A stretch of DNA of 61,453 nt, taken from positions 1-61,453 of IMG/VR virus record IMGVR_UViG_3300037313_000809; one strand, given 5' to 3'. How positions within the stretch are numbered: position 1 is the first letter of the stretch; each line of letters opens with the position of its first letter. This document shows positions 1 through 42,835 of this stretch, piece after piece. The translations under genes were made by a program, and so were the position numbers. The notes below the pieces were generated by a model, which saw nothing but the letters and a program-made list of their open reading frames with translations, was not told the DNA's origin and searched no databases. Origin of the DNA: a virus (Duplodnaviria > Caudoviricetes).

Positions 1-591
1 GAAGAATCGCCGCACCCGCTGGTCTGCGATCTCAAGGCTGTACTCGTTCCGGTGCGCCACCTTGATCGGCTCGACCGGCTCTTCGACGTGCCAGTCGGAG
101 GCCATCGCGACAGCGGTCATCTCGCGCAGGCCGGATGTCCGCTCACTGCGGATGATCTTCGGCGTCGCGGTTGCCGCGTGTAACTGGCCCATGAAGGCGT
201 TCCGCTCGCGTTCCTCTGCCAGCATCTCAACGAGGCGTGAGTGCTCTGCCTTGAGGCGAGCGTGCGCCCTGTTCTCACGGTGCTCTTCGACTGGGTCGCG
301 CGGCTCGCTTGCTGTGATGCGCGGCGGGTACGGCTTCGCATCGTTCGCCGCAATCGTCGCGTTCGTGGTCTCGCGCACTCGCTCGTAGGCGGTGCCGAGG
401 CGCGTAGTAGGCGTCTCGCCCTTCGCAGCAGCGACCGCCGCGTCCCACGTGCCGAAGATATTGCAGATCGTGCGCGGGCTCGGATCGCTCCCCTTCCGCT
501 CCCTTCCGTACCCTCTATTACTCCACTCGCCGCATTCGCTCGCGACACGGCGGAGTGAGGTAATGCAGTCGTCGCGGGTGAATTTCGGCAT
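1..591 (-). CDS. 5' part of a calcineurin-like metallophosphoesterase with an N-terminal HNH-associated-repeat-like segment; runs off the window start
   Basis: ATG at 591, open to base 1: MPKFTRDDCITSL...PSPRTICNIFGTWDAAVAAA...AMASDWHVEE...RVRRFF. DxH motif I is present; the other motifs lie at 60789-61453. Confidence 0.75.
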   Translation of the reverse strand, partial: MPKFTRDDCITSLRRVASECGEWSNRGYGRERKGSDPSPRTICNIFGTWDAAVAAAKGETPTTRLGTAYERVRETTNATIAANDAKPYPPRITASEPRDPVEEHRENRAHARLKAEHSRLVEMLAEERERNAFMGQLHAATATPKIIRSERTSGLREMTAVAMASDWHVEEPVEPIKVAHRNEYSLEIADQRVRRFF

Positions 592-822
592 GCGATGTCC
601 TTGTTTGGCGAATGGAACCGACCGGAATACCGTCGTATTCGGAATCGGCCGGAGGGGGGTTGATAATCTGCACCGCGACTGGTGCGCGCAGGGCTGATCA
701 GTCGGTGTCCCCACGCACATGGGGGTTGCGGTGATGCCTCTCTCGCCTTTGGGCGAGGGTCGGCGCGGGTCCTCTTGCGAGAGGGTCCACGCGGACTGAG
801 CAAGGTCCGAAAGGAGACGACG

Positions 823-1086
823 ATGAAGCGCGCTTCCCCCGCATACTCGGGGATTCGCAAGACAGAGGGACGCGTAAGCGACGAGGCCAAGCGGCTCGTC
901 GCTCTGCGCCTTGTATCGCCTACGAAGTGGCGCGCTGAAGTGCGACGGGCGCTATCCGCTGTCGGCAGCACAACGCTCGCAGCGGAACGGCTTGGCGTTA
1001 GCAGGCGACTGCTCGCCACGTGGGTCAGTGATGGCGTTGCCGATGGGCTCAGTCTGCGTGGACGAGGGAGGCCGAAGAACGAATGA
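823..1086 (+). CDS. Small HTH DNA-binding protein with C-terminal AT-hook-like RGRGRPK
   Basis: AAGGAG RBS; AAERLGVSRRLLATW helix-turn-helix pattern. Confidence 0.65.
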   Translation: MKRASPAYSGIRKTEGRVSDEAKRLVALRLVSPTKWRAEVRRALSAVGSTTLAAERLGVSRRLLATWVSDGVADGLSLRGRGRPKNE

Positions 1087-1691
1087 GCACACTTTACGTA
1101 CTGGCCAGCCGAACCCACGCGAAGATCGGCCTCAGCTCACGTGCGGATGTCCTACTGCGCGTGCGCGATGTGCAGGCGGATCATCGGCGGCGCGCTGGCG
1201 CACTGCGTCTCGTGGCGACAGTCGATGCATCCGTCCTGATCGAACGACACATCCACTGGATGCTCAACTCGGCTGCGGTTAAGAGCGACCGTGCGACACC
1301 TGGGAGTCGTTCTGAGTTGTTCCGGCTCACCGGCTCAGTAAGGAGATGCATCGCCTTCATCTCAGCGCACACGCCTTTCCGTAGGCTCCGCGCGACGCCG
1401 ATTCGGGTTCATGTGCTCGGCGGCGATCACGAGCCGACAGCGCCCGAATTTGTCGTCGATGCGGTGCCGCCAGACGTCACCATGAAAGACGTCTACCAAG
1501 CAGCGCGGGTGCCGTCGCATGTCCTAGCCGCATTCATGGACAGCAAACAGGTATCGGCTGAATACGCGCGTCGGATCGTTCAGGCGGCGGCGAGTCTCCA
1601 TCGTACGGAGCGACCACTCGCTGCACGTCGCTGCATTGAACAAGTCAGCTGCGCCGACCAGGCGCGCTGGAGGCCGAAGACGACGGAGTAG
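1083..1691 (+). CDS. GIY-YIG-like / T5orf172-domain protein
   Basis: LYVL...KIGLS...LIERHIH...SELFRL pattern; ATGA overlap with the upstream gene. Confidence 0.6.
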   Translation: MSTLYVLASRTHAKIGLSSRADVLLRVRDVQADHRRRAGALRLVATVDASVLIERHIHWMLNSAAVKSDRATPGSRSELFRLTGSVRRCIAFISAHTPFRRLRATPIRVHVLGGDHEPTAPEFVVDAVPPDVTMKDVYQAARVPSHVLAAFMDSKQVSAEYARRIVQAAASLHRTERPLAARRCIEQVSCADQARWRPKTTE

Positions 1692-1807
1692 TCAATCGTC
1701 GCCGCAATACGTGCTCGTGGTCTGCGTTGCGGAGGGAGGCGAGGCACAGGCCGAGGTGGCGGAGGAGTATGCGGTTGAGGAAGGCGGAGATGTGGTGGGC
1801 GATCACG

Positions 1808-2650
1808 TCAGATCACCGCCTTCTCGTGCAGCTCGCGCCAGACGCGCATGAAGGCGTCGTCGGGCCACGGCTCGCACCACACGAAGAGCGGTTCCGTGGT
1901 GGACCGCTTCAGCGCCGTCGCGAGTTCATCGGGGATGTCGCTCCACGCATATCCCTGAAGCGTCCCCCACACGGGCCGCTTGTGCCCCGTCCGTGCCAGC
2001 CGCGCATTCAGCTTGTCCCACGCGGCACCGCACTTCGGCGCCATCTTCGCGACGCGGTCACGTCCGTACTGGCGAGAGAAGTCGTTCCAATACCATTGCG
2101 GTGCTCTTGCATCGACGCAGTCGGCGAACTCCTCCCACGGCCACTTGGACCAGTGGACCGTCGGTAGCATCCACGGTTGGTCGCATACGATCTTGTGCGG
2201 GACCGCGTTGCGGTGCGACAGGAAGGTCGATGCGAACGCCCTCGCATGCGCCTTGTCGTCACCGTCCGCGGTGTCTTCGAATGCGCCCTCAGCGTCGAGT
2301 AGAACTCCGTCGCAGTGGTCAGACTCCAGCACTCGCCCGATGCGCTCGCCTTTGCCGGCCGGGTCACTGGAGTCCATCCCGAACGCGGCAAGGCTTCGCA
2401 TTCCGTTGTCGCGACAGATGCCGGTGAGATCGCGAAGAGCATCCGCCGTTAGCTCCGTCGAAAAGCCGTGGTGCGCGATGCCCTTTGCGCCGAGGCTTGC
2501 GAACTCGCGCACCTTCGCCGTGTAGAGTGCGAGGCGCTGCGTGCGTGTGCTGCCCGGAACCTTGCCGCGAAAGACTTGGATGTAGATTCCGGCAGGAAGC
2601 TTACGAAGCGCAGTTGTATCGGCGTCGTTCGTGGTTACTGAGTCGCCCAT
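1808..2650 (-). CDS. Putative endolysin (TIM-barrel glycoside hydrolase-like)
   Basis: DGVLLDAEG acidic DxE motif, APQWYW; last gene of the late operon after small membrane proteins. Confidence 0.55.
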   Translation of the reverse strand: MGDSVTTNDADTTALRKLPAGIYIQVFRGKVPGSTRTQRLALYTAKVREFASLGAKGIAHHGFSTELTADALRDLTGICRDNGMRSLAAFGMDSSDPAGKGERIGRVLESDHCDGVLLDAEGAFEDTADGDDKAHARAFASTFLSHRNAVPHKIVCDQPWMLPTVHWSKWPWEEFADCVDARAPQWYWNDFSRQYGRDRVAKMAPKCGAAWDKLNARLARTGHKRPVWGTLQGYAWSDIPDELATALKRSTTEPLFVWCEPWPDDAFMRVWRELHEKAVI

Positions 2651-3226
2651 GGATCTACACACTCGGTTTTGGTCGAAGGTTGATAAGAGCCGCGGAGAGC
2701 ACGGCTGTTGGCTCTGGACCGCGAAGGGCAAAGGTCAGCGTTATGGAGGCTTCTGGATGAACGGAGCCACGAGGCTCGCTCACCGCGTCGCCTATGAACT
2801 GACCAACGGTTCAATCGATGGAGACGTTGTGATGCACACGTGTGACACGCCGCTATGCGTCAACCCGAAGCACCTGCGTGTCGGAACTGTGTCCGACAAC
2901 ACACGCGACAAGTTTGCGAAGGGCCGCGGCGCGCAGCACTACCAATCAAGCTCGGAAGGTGAACGATTCGGACGGTGGACAGTTCTGACGTTCGTCGACT
3001 TTCACCATCGCAACGGAGAGCGATGGCGAGCACGATGCGAGTGCGGGAAGATCAAGGCTGTCTGGCTAGCGAATCTGCGTGCTGGCAGATCAAAATCGTG
3101 TGGCTGCTACCGCACAGAGCATGCTCGTGACGCGTGCGTACAACTCGGAAGGCCAGATCAGCGACCGCGCCGCCGCGCTGCTTAGATCCCGGCCGGGAGC
3201 TTCACCAGCGCAGCGCTATCGGCGTC
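2583..3226. repeat. 44-bp imperfect direct repeats (2583-2626 and 3183-3226) flanking the HNH gene
   Basis: 34/44 identical, exactly 600 bp apart; encode DADTTALRKLPAGIY and DADSAALVKLPAGI-stop on the minus strand. Confidence 0.9.
2649..3185 (+). CDS. HNH homing endonuclease, antisense to the late operon
   Basis: RFWSKV...CWLWT...AHRVAY...VMHTCDTPLCVNPKHL...N; C-terminal GERFGRWTV...CECG...SCGC module. Confidence 0.9.
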   Translation: MDLHTRFWSKVDKSRGEHGCWLWTAKGKGQRYGGFWMNGATRLAHRVAYELTNGSIDGDVVMHTCDTPLCVNPKHLRVGTVSDNTRDKFAKGRGAQHYQSSSEGERFGRWTVLTFVDFHHRNGERWRARCECGKIKAVWLANLRAGRSKSCGCYRTEHARDACVQLGRPDQRPRRRAA

Positions 3227-3229
3227 CAC
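3182..3229 (-). pseudogene. Orphaned original 5' end of the putative endolysin (15-codon stub)
   Basis: GTG overlapping the upstream TAG; VDADSAALVKLPAGI then TAA; matches the endolysin N-terminus. Confidence 0.75.
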
Positions 3230-3414
3230 TACTGCGCCCCGCCTTTGCGGGCGGCGAGCATCGCGCGCTCCGTTGCTGACTGCGGAGGGCACACGTCGGC
3301 GACTTTCTCGTCGCGGAGCACATCGCGTGGATCGTTCCCCGCCATCGCGTGGTCGATCATCTTCGCCGCGATCGGGGCGAGCAGTTCGAATACGAGCTTC
3401 GCGATCTCAATCAT
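3229..3414 (-). CDS. Small hypothetical protein (lysis region)
   Basis: MIEIAKLVFELLAP...; overlaps flanking genes. Confidence 0.6.
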   Translation of the reverse strand: MIEIAKLVFELLAPIAAKMIDHAMAGNDPRDVLRDEKVADVCPPQSATERAMLAARKGGAQ

Positions 3415-4075
3415 GGGATGCGTCTCCAGCGGTGCACTGATGGGCGAGGCTGTTGGCGATGGATGCGAGCGTGCGCGCGGCTGACTCGACTTCGGCGGGC
3501 ACCGCGACGTGGAGCGATGCGAGCAGGGCGAACACTGCGTCGAGGTCCCCACGCGCACCGCGCAGCGCCTCGCGTGCGGCGCATGCAGACGGCGCGTCTC
3601 CGATTCGCCGCCACTCGGATGCGGCGCGCTCGGCAACGATGAGCGAGGCTCGCAGACCATCGTACGCATCGACGAAGCGCTGACAGTCCGGCGCGGGTGA
3701 GGCGACGCCACAGTGAGGGGCGACGAGGTTATCGGCGAGTGCGAGTCCGTGCGCGGTGGAGTGGATTGCGACGAGGGTGTCTTCGGCAGGGCTGTAGGGA
3801 CGCGATGCGCACGCCACCAACATCAGCGTGAGCACGCCGAGGAGTCCCGGCTTCCACGCGCGCAGGATCGCAGTGGCGGCCTTCACGAGATCGGGCGAGA
3901 GATGCGCGACGCCCTCGGCGACGGCAGCGAGCTTCGGGTATCGATGCTTGATCGCGTCGCCGTGCTTAGCTGCGACCGCGCGACCGAGCGCTACAAACGC
4001 GGCGAGGGTTGCGGGGATCGCGCGCGGGTGCGCGTCGATGAATGCGAGTACGGTTGCGAGCATGTACGTGTTCAC
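3407..4075 (-). CDS. Membrane protein with an internal lipobox-like motif (possible holin/spanin-type lysis protein)
   Basis: Hydrophobic N-terminal segments; LLGVLTLMLVAC; start may be ATG 4063. Confidence 0.5.
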   Translation of the reverse strand: MNTYMLATVLAFIDAHPRAIPATLAAFVALGRAVAAKHGDAIKHRYPKLAAVAEGVAHLSPDLVKAATAILRAWKPGLLGVLTLMLVACASRPYSPAEDTLVAIHSTAHGLALADNLVAPHCGVASPAPDCQRFVDAYDGLRASLIVAERAASEWRRIGDAPSACAAREALRGARGDLDAVFALLASLHVAVPAEVESAARTLASIANSLAHQCTAGDASHD

Positions 4076-4350
4076 CTGTGGGCGAAGAGTCTTCGCGGCC
4101 TTTCTTGAGACGTGAGCCGACGAACTCGTAAGCGCCGCTTACGTGTTGCTCGTCGGAGTCGAGTTGACGCGCGGGAGGCAGTGAGGAGCGGAGTCACGCT
4201 CGTGCGCCTTGCCGCGCGTCGGTGGGGAATCCGTTGTGAACTGAACCGTCGGTTGAGTTCAGTGCGAGCGCGGGCCGTAGAGCCACCACGCAAGGCTGAT
4301 GCACGCGATAGCCGTGAATGCGACCTTCGCGGCGACGGTGAGCACTCGCT

Positions 4351-4641
4351 TCATCGCGGCACGTCGACCGTTGCGCCGCACGCGCGACACGCGACGAAGG
4401 CGGGGACGGTTGCGAGTGCGTGACGCGCTCCGAAGCTCATGCCGGTCCGCTGCGACTCGGTGCACGCGTTGAGCATGTGCCCGCGGTTGCTCTTGGAGAT
4501 GCGGTCGATCGCAGGCGCGTCGATGCCGAGCAAGCTCAGCTCGCGCCGCAGCTCGTTGTAGGCCGCTTCCATCTCGCGAAGTGCGGAGGCCGGGATGTCC
4601 GAGGAGCTACGGCGGATCGGCGGTATCGTCTCACCGCTCAC
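4351..4641 (-). CDS. Hypothetical protein with C-terminal CxxC
   Basis: Coupled GTGA/ATGA overlaps; ACRACG. Confidence 0.5.
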   Translation of the reverse strand: MSGETIPPIRRSSSDIPASALREMEAAYNELRRELSLLGIDAPAIDRISKSNRGHMLNACTESQRTGMSFGARHALATVPAFVACRACGATVDVPR

Positions 4642-4868
4642 AGCTTCACCACGGGTCGCGCTCTGCTCGGCGGCGGAGGCACTGGCGCATCGGCCAGCTT
4701 CAACCCGCACGTCTCACAGTGCACGAGCACGTCGTGTCGGGTGACGTGAAGGCCGGACCATCGACGCCGCACGTTGGCGAGGACATCGATGCTCGTTGGC
4801 AATGTCTGCCCCTCTTCCATCGCGCGCAGGTACGCGGCGCGGTAGCCGTCGTTGAGTGCGTCGATCAC
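4638..4868 (-). CDS. Hypothetical protein
   Basis: Coupled overlap; CETCG motif. Confidence 0.55.
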   Translation of the reverse strand: MIDALNDGYRAAYLRAMEEGQTLPTSIDVLANVRRRWSGLHVTRHDVLVHCETCGLKLADAPVPPPPSRARPVVKL

Positions 4869-5119
4869 TTCACAGCTCGTAGCCGCTCGGTGACTTCGAC
4901 ACGCGCTTTGATCCCGGCAACGTCAGCTTTCACGTCCGATAAATCAGACACCACCCCGTCCACTTTCGTTGCCATTGCCTTGTTCGACTCGGCGGATTCC
5001 CGTCGATGTTCTTTCAGGTCCTCGCGGGTCTGCTTCGACTGCGAGCGGATGTCAGCGAACATGACGACGATGGCAGCCAATGCGGCGATCACCGGCCACC
5101 AGTGGAGGAGAGCTTCCAT
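4865..5119 (-). CDS. Holin-like/hemolysin-like protein (N-terminal TM helix plus coiled coil)
   Basis: WWPVIAALAAIVVMF followed by a heptad-rich helix. Confidence 0.5.
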   Translation of the reverse strand: MEALLHWWPVIAALAAIVVMFADIRSQSKQTREDLKEHRRESAESNKAMATKVDGVVSDLSDVKADVAGIKARVEVTERLRAVK

Positions 5120-5200
5120 GCGATACGAACCTTCATGCTGCACACCGTGTCGCCGTGCGGGATGGGTGCGGGAGAGAAGAGGCGGTGTTATGGAATGGGC

Positions 5201-5410
5201 ATGACAGCAGAGCAGTTGATCGAATCGCTCCAGCGACTGGACCCGAAGACACGCGTGCTCATCGAAGTGACCAGCGTTGGAGAGTTGTTCGTTGTGAACC
5301 CGCGCGTGCGCAATGTGAGCGAGTACGACAACGTGGTCGCACGATCTGTGAAGGACTCGCCTGCTATCGTTCTCGCTCGCGCCGGGGATTACGTGGCGGA
5401 GAGGGCTTGA
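5201..5410 (+). CDS. Small hypothetical protein, counter-oriented
   Basis: MTAEQLIESLQRLDPKTRVLI phage-typical N-terminus; fills the intergenic gap. Confidence 0.6.
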   Translation: MTAEQLIESLQRLDPKTRVLIEVTSVGELFVVNPRVRNVSEYDNVVARSVKDSPAIVLARAGDYVAERA

Positions 5411-5420
5411 TAGCGGTACG

Positions 5421-6389
5421 TCAGCCTACTGCGGCGACGATCAACGGCGTCGCGGTCGCATGCATCGCCTCGTTGCCGTGGACGTCGTCAGGGAACATTG
5501 TGAGGTCCGGCCAGCTGCCACCACGCGGGACGATCGTTCGTCCATTCGGCGCCGCCGTGAAGATGGACGCGACAGACGCATCCAGTGACGACGTGTCCGA
5601 CCCCGACACGAACGACTGCATCCCGATCTTTTCGATGTCGGGTCGAAGCCCTGCGACGTACGACGCGAGTTGCGTCGCGAAGTTCGCGTTGCCGCGGTCG
5701 TTGTAGATTAGGTTGTAGAGAACGATGTTCCGAGTCGTCCCATCGCACAGCGCGTTCGTCTGCGCTGCGAGCGGGGCCATTGAATTGCCGCCTGCGACGT
5801 ACTCGGCGTTCAGCGAGTCGCCGCCATACCCCACGTTCGCAACGCGACCTGCGAACGTGTCTCGGAGCAGCCCGGCGATGCTGAGGCGACGCGAGTCGCC
5901 GAACGTTACGCCGTCGTTCGTGACCGCGAGCGTGCGGGACTCGGTGACCAACACGAGGCGGACTGCGGGGGCCGAAGGCGTGATCGCCGCGTACGTGTGC
6001 CCATCGGGCACATTCACGAGTCGAACGCTCGCGATCAAACCAGCGTTGTTCGCGGAGTCGAAAACCTCGACGAGCTGTTGCGTGCCTGGAAACGGAAGCG
6101 TCACCGTCGCTGTTGTGACCGTATTCGCCGTGCATGCGATCGACTGAACGAACACGCCATTCACGTAGACATCAACGACGCCGATCCCGGGATACGTGGT
6201 CTGCGTCGACCACGCTTTGACGGTGATCGAGTCTGCGGTGGTGTAGATCCGCTTTGAGCTAAGCGAGTTGCGTAGGCGGTAGTTACCCCCCACCAGCGTG
6301 CTCGTATACGTGTCCCAAGCGCAAAGGTCTGACCCGAGCCCATCGAGGTACTGTGACGTGTACGCGTCGACCCAGCCCGGACGACTCAT
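5421..6389 (-). CDS. SGNH/GDSL esterase-domain virion protein
   Basis: Blocks VTES, GYGG, NLIYND, DDVH; beta-rich N-terminal domain. Confidence 0.65.
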   Translation of the reverse strand: MSRPGWVDAYTSQYLDGLGSDLCAWDTYTSTLVGGNYRLRNSLSSKRIYTTADSITVKAWSTQTTYPGIGVVDVYVNGVFVQSIACTANTVTTATVTLPFPGTQQLVEVFDSANNAGLIASVRLVNVPDGHTYAAITPSAPAVRLVLVTESRTLAVTNDGVTFGDSRRLSIAGLLRDTFAGRVANVGYGGDSLNAEYVAGGNSMAPLAAQTNALCDGTTRNIVLYNLIYNDRGNANFATQLASYVAGLRPDIEKIGMQSFVSGSDTSSLDASVASIFTAAPNGRTIVPRGGSWPDLTMFPDDVHGNEAMHATATPLIVAAVG

Positions 6390-7564
6390 CGATACGCCTT
6401 CACGTACTGGACGATCGAAGACAGCACGCCTGCGGTGCTGTTGTTCAGGAGGTAGGTCGTTCCGCTCGGGACGTTCGCCAACACGCTACCCGTGCCGACA
6501 TCGGTAACCGTCCCGTTCACGCTCGCCCACGCGTGCGTAGTGAGACCGCCGCCACACTCGACGTAGATCTTCACAGTGTCGAGTGCGCTGTAGGCCGGCA
6601 CGGCAACGCCCAGCGTATCGGTCACGCCGTTGAGCGTGACCGCGATCTTGCGCGTGCTCTGAACGATCTTCGCGTTGTTGCTCGCGTCCTTCCACCAAAG
6701 AAACTGGTCGGCTCCGTACTGCGACGACGCGCCAAGCGGGAGTAGGCTGAATTCAATCTTGAGCGCGCCCGATACTCTCAGGTCCGTCGTCGTGCTCGCG
6801 AGGTCGGCGGCACGGATCGCAGTCCCTCCGCTCGTCGCGATGTGCGAGGTCGCGAACGAGGCAAGCTCCAGCTGGAGCAGCCGGTAGACGTTGTCCATGT
6901 TGCCAGGATTGCCGCCACCGGATGCCGTCCAGTCGTGTCCGCTGTGGACTGCGAACTGACACGATGCGGATGCGTGCGATCCGGATTGTGTGATTGCGTG
7001 ATGCGACCACGACCCATCGATGTTGTGCATCGACGCAACGACGTTGGTGCCGTCGTAGAGGTACCCCTGTCCCTTGCCCGCACTACCGCCTGTCGTGCGG
7101 CTCCACCACGACGCAACTACGGCACCCGCACCGAACGTCCCTTGTGCGAAGGCCCCGGCCTGGTCCCCGATGTTCGCCACTCGCGATGCGAGCGATTGCG
7201 AGTCGGGTCCAGACGGCGTGAGCGGTCGCGTCGTTGTCGCCGTGCCTGCGCTCCACGACCCCGCCGTTAGGTTGTCGGAGTCGCCAACGAGATTGGTGCG
7301 TGACTCTTCCAGCAGCAGACCCGTGTGCGTGCCGTCGCTGAAGATGCGGCCGGTGTTCGTGCCGATGCCCGACGTGACGGTGGACGCGGATGTCTGCACC
7401 GTCGCGTTGGACGACGAGCGTGCGACGGCGATGTCGAGCGTTGTGGCGGAACCTGCACCGGGCGTGAAGCCAGTGAAGTCGGCAGCGAAGACCGTGGCAT
7501 TCGCCACTCCCCCATGCCCCCTGCTCCGATCCCGTGCGCCGTGCGTGCGGCCGAATGCGGTCAC
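6386..7564 (-). CDS. Fibre/spike protein with carbohydrate-binding-like domains
   Basis: GLLLEESRTNL motif; G/S/T-rich beta composition. Confidence 0.65.
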   Translation of the reverse strand: MTAFGRTHGARDRSRGHGGVANATVFAADFTGFTPGAGSATTLDIAVARSSSNATVQTSASTVTSGIGTNTGRIFSDGTHTGLLLEESRTNLVGDSDNLTAGSWSAGTATTTRPLTPSGPDSQSLASRVANIGDQAGAFAQGTFGAGAVVASWWSRTTGGSAGKGQGYLYDGTNVVASMHNIDGSWSHHAITQSGSHASASCQFAVHSGHDWTASGGGNPGNMDNVYRLLQLELASFATSHIATSGGTAIRAADLASTTTDLRVSGALKIEFSLLPLGASSQYGADQFLWWKDASNNAKIVQSTRKIAVTLNGVTDTLGVAVPAYSALDTVKIYVECGGGLTTHAWASVNGTVTDVGTGSVLANVPSGTTYLLNNSTAGVLSSIVQYVKAYR

Positions 7565-38941: not shown

Positions 38942-39265
38942 TCACGACGCCACCCCCGGCAACGCGACCTGTCGACGCTGGAAGAATTCCTCACCGGAAC
39001 GTGAGCGGATCTGCGAGACGGCCCATGCCGCCACCTCACGCGCCTCCTTCTCGTCGTGCATGCCCCAGTTGAAGTCGACGACGCGGCCACGGCGTCCGTT
39101 GAACGTCCCGTCCATCACCCACGACGGGCGGCCGAGGACTGACACGCCGCCCTTGAACGACTCCGCGTAGAGGGTGAATGAGTTGTCTTCGACGACGAAC
39201 GTGTAGCGCAGGAGAAGTGCGTGGTTGCCGTCGTCGAGCGTGAAGCGCCAAGGGAGCCCCATCAC
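38942..39265 (-). CDS. Hypothetical protein
   Basis: Coupled ORF. Confidence 0.5.
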   Translation of the reverse strand: MMGLPWRFTLDDGNHALLLRYTFVVEDNSFTLYAESFKGGVSVLGRPSWVMDGTFNGRRGRVVDFNWGMHDEKEAREVAAWAVSQIRSRSGEEFFQRRQVALPGVAS

Positions 39266-40062
39266 CGCACCCCTCCCTTCGCCCCGCCGATGGCGTGCAC
39301 GTTGGAGATACGGTCAGGCACCGGCATGAACACGACGCCGAGCCCATTCGCGACGCCAGCCCCGAGCGCACACCCGACGCACTTACCGTCGCCCCACCCA
39401 TCGGCCTGCTGCACTTGTCGGCCGAGACATTCGCGATGGGTCAAGGTCAGCGCACGCGGCGCGCATCTGACGTCGGTGTCGTTCGACGCGCCGACACGCC
39501 ACGAACAGTCGCCGCATACATGGCGACCGTCCGCATCGACGAGCGTGCTGCGACGATGATGGCCGCACCGCACGCACTGGACAGTCGGTGGTCTCGGGTC
39601 GACTGCACCGGTAGCAATCGACCACGCGCGGCCGGCTTGAATGTTGTAGACGACGTGGAGACCAACGCCGTACTCGGCCGCGAGTTCTTTCGTGCTCGCA
39701 CCGTTCTTGAGCCGCGAATAGATCGCCGCAGCCTGCTCGTTCGTGAGCGTTGCGCGGGGCGATCGGTCTCCGTGCATCTGGCGACGCTTCGCGACCATGT
39801 CGCGCATGTTCTCGACGTGCGTCCCGACGAAGAGGTGGTCTGGATTCACGCACGCGCGGACGTCGCACCTATGCAGCACATGCAGTCCGTCAGGCACTTC
39901 GCCGTTCGCAAGTTCCCACGAGACACGATGGGTGTGCCGGTACTTGCCGTCCTGCTTGATGAGCCCGTACCCGTAGCGAGTCCGATGCCCAAGCCATACG
40001 ACGCACCCGTCCGCACGCGTCTCGCACTTGCGTCGAAGTCTGTTCTCGATCGACTCCATCAC
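39262..40062 (-). CDS. HNH endonuclease with HTH and Cys-rich C-terminal extension
   Basis: THRVSW...VLHRCDVRACVNPDHL...EN; CVRC, CGDC, CVGC. Confidence 0.85.
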   Translation of the reverse strand: MMESIENRLRRKCETRADGCVVWLGHRTRYGYGLIKQDGKYRHTHRVSWELANGEVPDGLHVLHRCDVRACVNPDHLFVGTHVENMRDMVAKRRQMHGDRSPRATLTNEQAAAIYSRLKNGASTKELAAEYGVGLHVVYNIQAGRAWSIATGAVDPRPPTVQCVRCGHHRRSTLVDADGRHVCGDCSWRVGASNDTDVRCAPRALTLTHRECLGRQVQQADGWGDGKCVGCALGAGVANGLGVVFMPVPDRISNVHAIGGAKGGVR

Positions 40063-42379: not shown

Positions 42380-42835
42380 TTACGCCGTCTCGGCGAGGGT
42401 GGTGTTGGCGGCGACGTGCTTCCACGTGCGACCGGAGCGGATCAGCGCGACGTTCTTCGGCGAGGTGCTGAACCGCGCGGCGAGCGCGCTGTGCGTGTCG
42501 TTCGACGCGCGGATCGCACGCACAGCGTCGTCATTCAGCTTCGACAGATTCGATCGAACGCCGCGCGCCTGACGTCCCTTCGCCACCTTGTCCGCGACGT
42601 TTGCGGCATGAGTGCCGACGAAGAGGTGCGATGGGTTGATGCATGCCGGGGTGTCACAACGGTGGAGCACGCATTCGCCAGGGAGCAGTGTGCGATTCAC
42701 GTGCGCCCACACGACGCGAGCCGCGACGAAGCCGTGGGTGCGTGCACGACCGGAGCGATCGCATGCACCCGGCCACAACCAGCACCCGGTGTTCGGCTCG
42801 GGGACCGAGCGATCGAGGATGCGCGCAACGTTCAT
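42380..42835 (-). CDS. HNH endonuclease
   Basis: EPNTGCWLW...VLHRCDTPACINPSHL. Confidence 0.85.
   Translation of the reverse strand: MNVARILDRSVPEPNTGCWLWPGACDRSGRARTHGFVAARVVWAHVNRTLLPGECVLHRCDTPACINPSHLFVGTHAANVADKVAKGRQARGVRSNLSKLNDDAVRAIRASNDTHSALAARFSTSPKNVALIRSGRTWKHVAANTTLAETA

Follow-up and report, generated by a model that had tools for sequence, protein, structure and literature searches.

The soil phage record IMGVR_UViG_3300037313_000809 (IMG/VR; Caudoviricetes), a linear stretch of 61,453 bases which was analysed over its whole length and is called the window here, contains a complete free-standing HNH_3 endonuclease gene that lies in antisense orientation inside a lysin-like gene. 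On one side of the endonuclease gene the start of the lysin-like gene is left as a stub of 15 codons which, judged from the N-termini of homologous proteins, is the native start. On the other side the gene begins anew with a second, diverged copy of the same codons, and its present start codon shares a single CATG with the start codon of the endonuclease gene. We consider it probable that this arrangement arose by one-sided homing, in which the HNH_3 gene would have entered together with the first codons of the lysin-like allele of a related phage. The features on which the argument is built are the following (nt, nucleotides; ORF, open reading frame):

1808..2650, minus strand: lysin-like gene now in use, 280 codons, ATG at 2650-2648, beginning MGDSVTTNDADTTALRKLPAGIYIQ
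2649..3185, plus strand: free-standing HNH_3 endonuclease gene, 178 codons, antisense to the surrounding late genes
3182..3229, minus strand: relic 5' end (stub) of the lysin-like gene, consisting of GTG at 3229-3227, 14 further codons and TAA at 3184-3182, and reading VDADSAALVKLPAGI before the stop
3183..3226: resident copy of the direct repeat, lying in the stub, 77% identical to 2583-2626
2583..2626: direct repeat, putatively imported copy, codons 9-23 of the working gene
2627..2650, minus strand: MGDSVTTN, eight new codons at the N-terminus that the stub lacks; they are the antisense of the HNH start codon together with the preceding 18 nt
2560..3090: tract of foreign composition, taking in the larger part of the HNH gene and the first 25-30 or so lysin-like codons, G+C 57.8% against a mean of 65.0% in the record
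3229..3417, minus strand: upstream ORF of 62 codons, part of the resident lysis-like gene block, TAG at 3231-3229

Structure of the interrupted gene

Over roughly the first 43,000 positions of the record the minus strand carries the convincing ORFs, among them some for proteins of the size of tail proteins, and the locus lies at their downstream end. The GTG of the stub overlaps the TAG of the upstream 62-codon ORF (3231-3229) by one base, by which the coupling to that ORF is retained, and it is preceded by the Shine-Dalgarno-like sequence aaggcgggg. The upstream ORF itself matched no Pfam or PHROG family. Between the stop of the stub and ATG 2650 there are approximately 530 nt.

The two copies of the repeat, 44 nt each and identical at 34 of 44 positions, are spaced by 600 nt and constitute the largest direct-repeat family in the region 1500-4500, the next families having 27 nt at most. 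At the offset of 600, 34 of 48 positions match, compared with 8 to 14 of 48 at the ten neighbouring offsets (595-605). The local alignment score was 41, against a mean of 14.9 (standard deviation 2.4, maximum 24) in 200 shuffles, and it was again 41 when flanks of 270 nt were aligned, for which 100 shuffles gave a maximum of 26. Starting right behind the native start codon, the homology extends as far as ATCTA; the sequence in front of it cannot be aligned, and the position of the native start codon is occupied by GTG in the stub and by AAC in the internal copy. The ten differences between the copies amount to four synonymous codons, all of them changed from G/C to A/T, and three replacement codons, one of which (Val to Arg) introduces the residue that the homologue P0005 has at the same position.

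The ATG of the HNH gene (2649-2651, plus strand) and the ATG of the lysin-like gene (2650-2648, minus strand) are contained in one CATG at 2648-2651. At the other end, the TAG of the HNH gene (3183-3185) provides the first three bases of the resident repeat copy, the two stop codons interlock at 3182-3185, and the HNH/stub junction falls at CTA/TAG, bases that the two partners share. A preliminary description of this locus, made without database searches, had reported a 15-codon stub whose GTG at 3229 overlaps the previous stop, a copy of it 600 bp downstream, an HNH stop codon forming the edge of one repeat and two start codons overlapping in a CATG. All of this is borne out, the stub by its coordinates, the copy and its degree of identity by the repeat and shuffle tests, the repeat edge by the ORF and repeat coordinates and the overlap by the bases themselves.

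The record is a metagenome contig with a word depth of about 9-fold and is estimated to be 46% complete. Matching contigs were present in two soil runs (X1 and X2), with no RNA run among the runs listed. X1 is probably the sample of origin, so that its Logan contigs would represent the same reads put together by a different assembler; they cover 1502-2808 and 2807-5000 with no difference from the record. The lysin start/HNH start at 2648-2651 and the HNH stop/stub at 3182-3185 are each situated well inside one Logan contig, again with no differences, and the junctions thus do not depend on one assembly.

An assembly chimera of two strains, in which the duplication would be apparent only, might be suspected because the record is a metagenome contig of such depth and because there is a break between Logan contigs within the HNH gene, at 2807/2808. 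However, the critical junctions do not coincide with this break, the parts of the HNH gene to its left and right make up one ORF that matches the homologue P0207 end to end, and the longest exact matches between the repeat copies (about 10 nt) are too short to mislead a k-mer assembler, so that we regard a chimera as very improbable. The break itself, at which one contig of X1 ends and the other begins, could be a graph branch caused by paralogous HNH genes or by a strain variant. A loose end at 3178 in X1, a piece too short for listing in a G+C-rich stretch, was treated as a chance match. X2, a soil run of another study, yielded short contigs identical to 1384-1534 and 2119-2317 and none at the junctions; the phage or a very close relative is present in more than one sample.

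The stub as the native start

Among 5.8 billion proteins searched, 17 homologues of the 280-residue protein were found, with identities of 36-67%. In the alignment, three of the seven closest begin with M/V-(T)-DAD..KLPAG(I/V)Y and have no extension. Their N-termini are MDADSAALTKLPAGIYVQV (P0004), MDADVAALAKLPAGVYIQP (P0006) and VTDADVAAIRKLPAGIYPQV (P0005), the stub peptide running into the first beta strand. When these proteins were compared with the DNA by tblastn, their first residues fell onto 3229-3194, that is, onto the stub, with 10/12 (P0004), 9/12 (P0006) and 9/13 (P0005) matches. Apart from the stub, tblastn of the homologues against the window revealed no remnant of the old gene.

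Because three of the seven closest homologues begin with the same peptide, the lysin-like gene originally started, on the evidence of these N-termini, at the stub, and the existence of proteins that start in this way would imply that there are uninterrupted alleles. The other four of the seven have different or shorter N-termini and the more distant homologues start two to six residues before the strand, indicating that the N-terminal helix is variable in the lysin-like family. The earlier proposal that the stub is the decapitated original start is thereby supported from the homologue side, as is, by the repeat, the proposal that the working 5' end is a second, diverged copy of it.

The HNH_3 endonuclease gene

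The protein encoded between the two copies matches the Pfam family HNH_3 (PF13392) with an E-value of 4.5e-10 and 39.4 bits (cut-off 24.8), its residues 42-86 covering positions 1-46 of the 46 in the profile. It also matches 11 PHROG families, nine of which are annotated as endonuclease or HNH endonuclease (best E 4.8e-28). It is composed of an N-terminal His-Me nuclease domain and a C-terminal Cys-rich DNA-binding module, the latter (residues 102-160) matching phrog_374 with an E-value of 1.2e-14. In an alignment of 12 HNH protein sequences H63, C65, C70, P73, H75 and N84 are invariant. Residues 5-178 align with residues 7-185 of the 185-residue P0207 at 46% identity and reach the same final column. 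From this end-to-end match it follows that the gene is full length and, as it is complete, that it meets the stub at its natural stop, so that the description of the intervening gene as a complete HNH endonuclease holds on the profile match and on the alignment alike. An alternative start, a GTG at 2631, would add six codons. The family to which the protein belongs is very large, and an exhaustive search of 1.84 billion representatives returned no close orthologue.

Since the gene lies on the strand opposite to the interrupted ORF it cannot be an intein. The covariance scan of 1500-4200 detected no group I or group II intron and no other relevant family at E-values up to 1, its only two matches being sub-threshold small-RNA families at 1756-1831. 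The gene has the structure of a free-standing homing endonuclease gene, being a complete ORF with a nuclease and a DNA-binding module outside any intron or intein.

The protein would still start at the stub if the 600 nt were removed by an intron or skipped by ribosomal bypass, from ATC-TAA to ATC-TAC. The spacing of 600 preserves the reading frame, a take-off-like codon followed by a stop has a matching codon downstream, and bypass in T4 gene 60 is reported to be tied to a homing endonuclease cassette. In T4 gene 60, however, the coding gap is 50 nt and not 600, and in the present case a complete protein gene occupies the interval on the other strand and the region is devoid of recognisable intron families in the scan mentioned above. 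We find this explanation scarcely credible.

Origin of the new 5' end

The composition of the cassette is foreign to the record. Of all 500-nt segments of the record, the one beginning at 2601 has the lowest G+C content (57.6%); just 0.25% of these segments have 58.5% or less. The G+C content at third codon positions (GC3) is 0.63 in the HNH gene and 0.55 in codons 1-20 of the lysin-like gene, compared with 0.785 in the 22 long ORFs of the record (9,299 codons). Within the repeat, GC3 is 12/14 in the stub, a value of 12 being reached by 41% of 14-codon segments, and 6/14 in the internal copy, a value of 6 or less being found in only 1.0% of the 8991 14-codon segments of the 22 long ORFs. The A/T-ending codons to which the preliminary description had drawn attention are therefore a real property of the internal copy.

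The same description had spoken of a recoded N-terminus. As the internal copy shares the low G+C content of the HNH gene, the simplest reading is that the new 5' end would be the natural allele of a donor phage which arrived with the endonuclease gene, and this fits better than recoding in place. The copies are, it is true, in register, their spacing is a multiple of three and four of the seven differing codons are synonymous, as might be the case if 44 nt of the target had been duplicated in place, by the insertion or after it, and the working copy had then diverged under selection to avoid cleavage or recombination, which would be true recoding. However, a divergence of 23% in 44 nt needs a long time, yet the HNH gene is intact, and all four synonymous changes go against the G+C bias of the record and agree in composition with the HNH gene next to them. 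In addition, a stagger of 44 nt is not known for the cuts of homing endonucleases, and a duplication in place appears improbable to us.

One-sided homing of the HNH_3 gene could have proceeded as follows. In the donor, the endonuclease gene would already have been placed head to head with a lysin-like gene, with a single CATG containing the start codons of both. The resident gene of the recipient would have been broken in or near codon 15/16, and the break would have been repaired from the donor on one side only. At the downstream end this would have occurred by homologous recombination inside the lysin-like gene, and at the upstream end by an illegitimate join to the end of the endonuclease ORF, at the common CTA/TAG. 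Such an event would have reduced the resident start to a stub of 15 codons that keeps its coupling to the upstream gene, and would have placed the endonuclease gene in antisense within the late operon. The lysin-like gene would be whole again and presumably read from ATG 2650, in the donor-derived 5' end, and the present allele may be immune to cleavage.

Several points weigh against this history. ATG 2650 is not preceded by a purine-rich Shine-Dalgarno-like motif, although the GTG of the stub is; such a motif is present at only 19 of 36 approximately located starts of the record. The right-hand limit of the imported tract is undefined, as GC3 remains somewhat low up to about codon 140 (0.55-0.85 per 20-codon block in codons 1-140, and 0.85-1.0 in codons 141-280 except for 0.60 in codons 181-200). 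The lysin-like protein is a mosaic, the nearest homologues being P0004/P0005 for residues 1-50 and the last 30 residues and P0002/P0003 for residues 141-250, and a larger module swap is possible for this reason. That the HNH enzyme cuts the lysin-like gene at all is putative, and so is the site.

Furthermore, the searches of GenBank phages and contigs yielded neither DNA of a close relative nor an element-free allele or a donor. In detail, blastn of 1500-4200 against GenBank phages gave one irrelevant match of 114 nt and tblastn of the lysin-like protein none. A search for related loci in viral, metagenome and genome contigs, for which the protein, alignments, P0002, P0004 and P0005 served as queries, returned only two distant loci, L005 (41% identical) and L006 (37%). 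The history is consequently read from one sequence and from the N-termini of homologues that are 55-67% identical. No element-free joint across the cassette is seen in the contigs of X1, the probable source, but contigs cannot show absence.

It is possible, if doubtful, that the endonuclease gene and the diverged copy of its target (the first 15-25 codons, with a start built into the CATG) constitute a self-immunising mobile unit. Each landing of such a unit would cut off the resident start and supply a working replacement that is resistant to cleavage, and a free-standing endonuclease could thus reside inside an essential phage ORF without intron, intein or bypass. It would be the antisense, 5'-end counterpart of the 3'-end replacements known from organelles, and the late-operon transcript, being antisense to the endonuclease mRNA, could limit the expression of the enzyme.

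If one-sided homing of the HNH_3 gene is the right reading, the locus would represent a natural footprint of one-sided illegitimate homing which marks both the site of the break and the part contributed by the donor, and the coding sequence would have survived the invasion by duplication of one end and not by splicing. The stub-plus-body sequence and the imported copy offer a candidate substrate pair for cleavage. The finding leaves the current understanding of homing endonucleases unchanged.

Other nuclease-like genes and possible module exchange

Three further nuclease-like genes of the record bear on this question:

1083-1691, plus strand: T5orf172-like (GIY-YIG-related) gene beyond the 3' end of the lysin-like gene, E 0.0082, 17.1 bits, below the cut-off of 20
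39262-40062 and 42380-42835, minus strand: two further HNH_3 genes that point the same way as their neighbours; in the nuclease domain they share 43-46% identity with the gene at 2649..3185

As the T5orf172-like gene and the HNH gene are both on the plus strand, the lysin-like gene is bracketed by nuclease-like genes. Brackets of this kind have been described as boundaries of genetic exchange (PMC10448857). The whole module may accordingly have been swapped by ordinary recombination between mosaic phages, perhaps with both flanking nuclease genes, and the stub would then be a leftover of the left crossover. The change of the nearest homologue along the lysin-like protein, as well as the lower GC3 of codons 1-140 in comparison with codons 141-280, would agree with such an exchange. 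However, the G+C trough is confined to about 2560-3090 and GC3 in the 3' half of the gene is resident-like or higher. Moreover, the left junction is located exactly at the stop of the HNH gene, as is expected if the endonuclease gene was the unit that moved, and the T5orf172-like gene has no flank repeat. We thus judge a module swap unlikely and prefer the one-sided homing of the HNH_3 gene.

Flank repeats were also looked for around other nuclease genes. Neither the two other HNH_3 genes of the record nor the T5orf172-like gene have flank repeats above their own shuffles. With the HNH protein of the window and P0207 as queries, 42 HNH loci were fetched from viral contigs, in which the nuclease domain only was matched (33-66% identity in the best segment). 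None of the 40 testable loci has a flank repeat with a score above 28 (41 in the present locus), and a lysin homologue was present in none of the 42. The flank duplication is peculiar to the insertion at 2649..3185.

The two other HNH_3 genes carry tails of the helix-turn-helix type and no Cys-rich module. The ATG of the T5orf172-like gene is preceded by a strong gagggagg motif, and the end of this gene overlaps the 3' part of a 53-codon ORF (1645-1806, minus strand) whose GTG is situated just past the lysin stop, and which may be another gene shortened by insertion. An ORF at 1-720 (minus strand), which runs off the end of the window, matches the homing-endonuclease-associated repeat PF18780 with an E-value of 9.4e-5 (23.1 bits, cut-off 26). 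In L005, the lysin homologue (3318-4235) is followed by ORFs at 4761-5357 and 5995-6708 (plus strand) which by eye resemble HNH and GIY-YIG endonucleases; nuclease genes near the lysin-like gene may thus recur.

Comparison with known systems

In the mobA/gene 60 cassette of T4 and in nrdA/mobE of Aeromonas phage Aeh1, the interrupted genes are expressed by ribosomal bypass or by the assembly of two polypeptides. The present locus resembles them in that a phage gene contains, or is split by, an endonuclease gene and retains its function without RNA or protein splicing, and it is unlike them in that one end of the gene is duplicated instead.

One-sided homing has been described in T4 for the situation that a single flank is homologous; it proceeds by illegitimate double-strand-break repair with microhomology at the junctions, and the T4 gene segD is antisense to its neighbours (PMC2988022). 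The preliminary description had found the antisense 5'-end replacement unfamiliar, and in view of these precedents its strangeness was overstated. The HNH_3 gene shares with the free-standing HNH and GIY-YIG genes of the T4 seg/mob type that it joins a nuclease to a DNA-binding part outside an intron or intein, and one-sided homing would share with T4 intronless homing that a donor flank is carried in and that the junction is one of microhomology where only one side is homologous (PMC2988022). In contrast to the seg/mob genes, the endonuclease gene is found inside a coding sequence and not between genes, it is accompanied by a stub and a duplicate of the 5' end of its target, and its start codon lies in one CATG with that of the target gene. 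In addition, cleavage and mobility are putative here. The one-sided events of T4 come from engineered crosses.

Partial duplications of the C-terminal parts of atp6 and cob are found beside free-standing endonuclease ORFs in fungal mitochondria (PMC6279837). In these cases, too, a partial duplicate of the end of a host gene flanks a free-standing endonuclease gene. They concern, however, 3' ends in organelles, whereas in the present phage the 5' end is affected, the endonuclease gene is antisense and a new start codon was needed.

In ICP1-like phages, T5orf172 and HNH_3 nuclease genes with Cys-rich CapR-like domains bracket genes (PMC10448857). The lysin-like gene is similar to these homing endonuclease gene islands in having nuclease genes on both sides of a single gene; a CapR match was obtained with an E-value of 0.12 only, in the HNH homologue P0207. 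Genes interrupted by endonuclease genes are reported for these phages as well, the portion of the account drawn upon describing no stub or duplicated gene end (PMC10448857). No phage report of a partial 5'-end target duplicate beside an antisense homing endonuclease gene was found in the literature covered, which did not extend to subscription journals and supplements.

Identity of the interrupted gene

The AlphaFold2 model of the 280-residue protein (predicted local distance difference test, pLDDT, 93.4; predicted template modelling score, pTM, 0.91) is a glycosidase-like TIM barrel. Residues 9-17 form a helix and residues 21-27 the first strand, so the interruption falls between helix and strand; residues 1-3 have pLDDT values under 50, and the average over residues 1-10 is 59. 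The best matches among solved folds are the C-terminal domain of PgaB, the wall protein Cwp19 of Clostridioides difficile, chitinases and GH5, with template modelling (TM) scores of 0.44-0.61; among viral proteins, an uncharacterised one of a phage comes closest (TM 0.67). The protein belongs to no Pfam or PHROG family, and among these no recognised family of peptidoglycan hydrolases was matched.

C-terminal tails are present on some distant homologues and on those of L005 and L006. Of the 18 proteins scanned, only P0012 shows a PG_binding_1 domain, at 22.6 bits and thus under the cut-off of 23. Structural neighbours in the Atlas (TM 0.71-0.77) include clusters with a frequent LysM (96% of members) or PG_binding_1 domain (77% and 99%), which are to be taken as leads only. 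Upstream, a protein of 92 residues (4865-5143, minus strand) has one transmembrane-like segment (hydropathy 2.11) and weak matches to spanin and holin families of PHROG (E 0.006-0.009).

From its fold, its gene neighbourhood and the putative wall-binding fusions of its relatives it is plausible but unproven that the interrupted gene encodes a lysin. The name endolysin, under which it had been introduced, is reasonable on these same grounds, but the protein falls into no known lysin family. In any case, the locus draws attention to an uncharacterised family of glycosidase-like TIM barrels at the usual position of a phage lysin.

A scan of 1000-5500 gave no promoter-like and two terminator-like sites, which is not above shuffles. 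Finally, a 222-codon ORF of the same region (3407-4075, minus strand) contains, as judged by eye, a lipobox-like LVAC after a hydrophobic run, suggesting that it may have an internal start for a lipoprotein.

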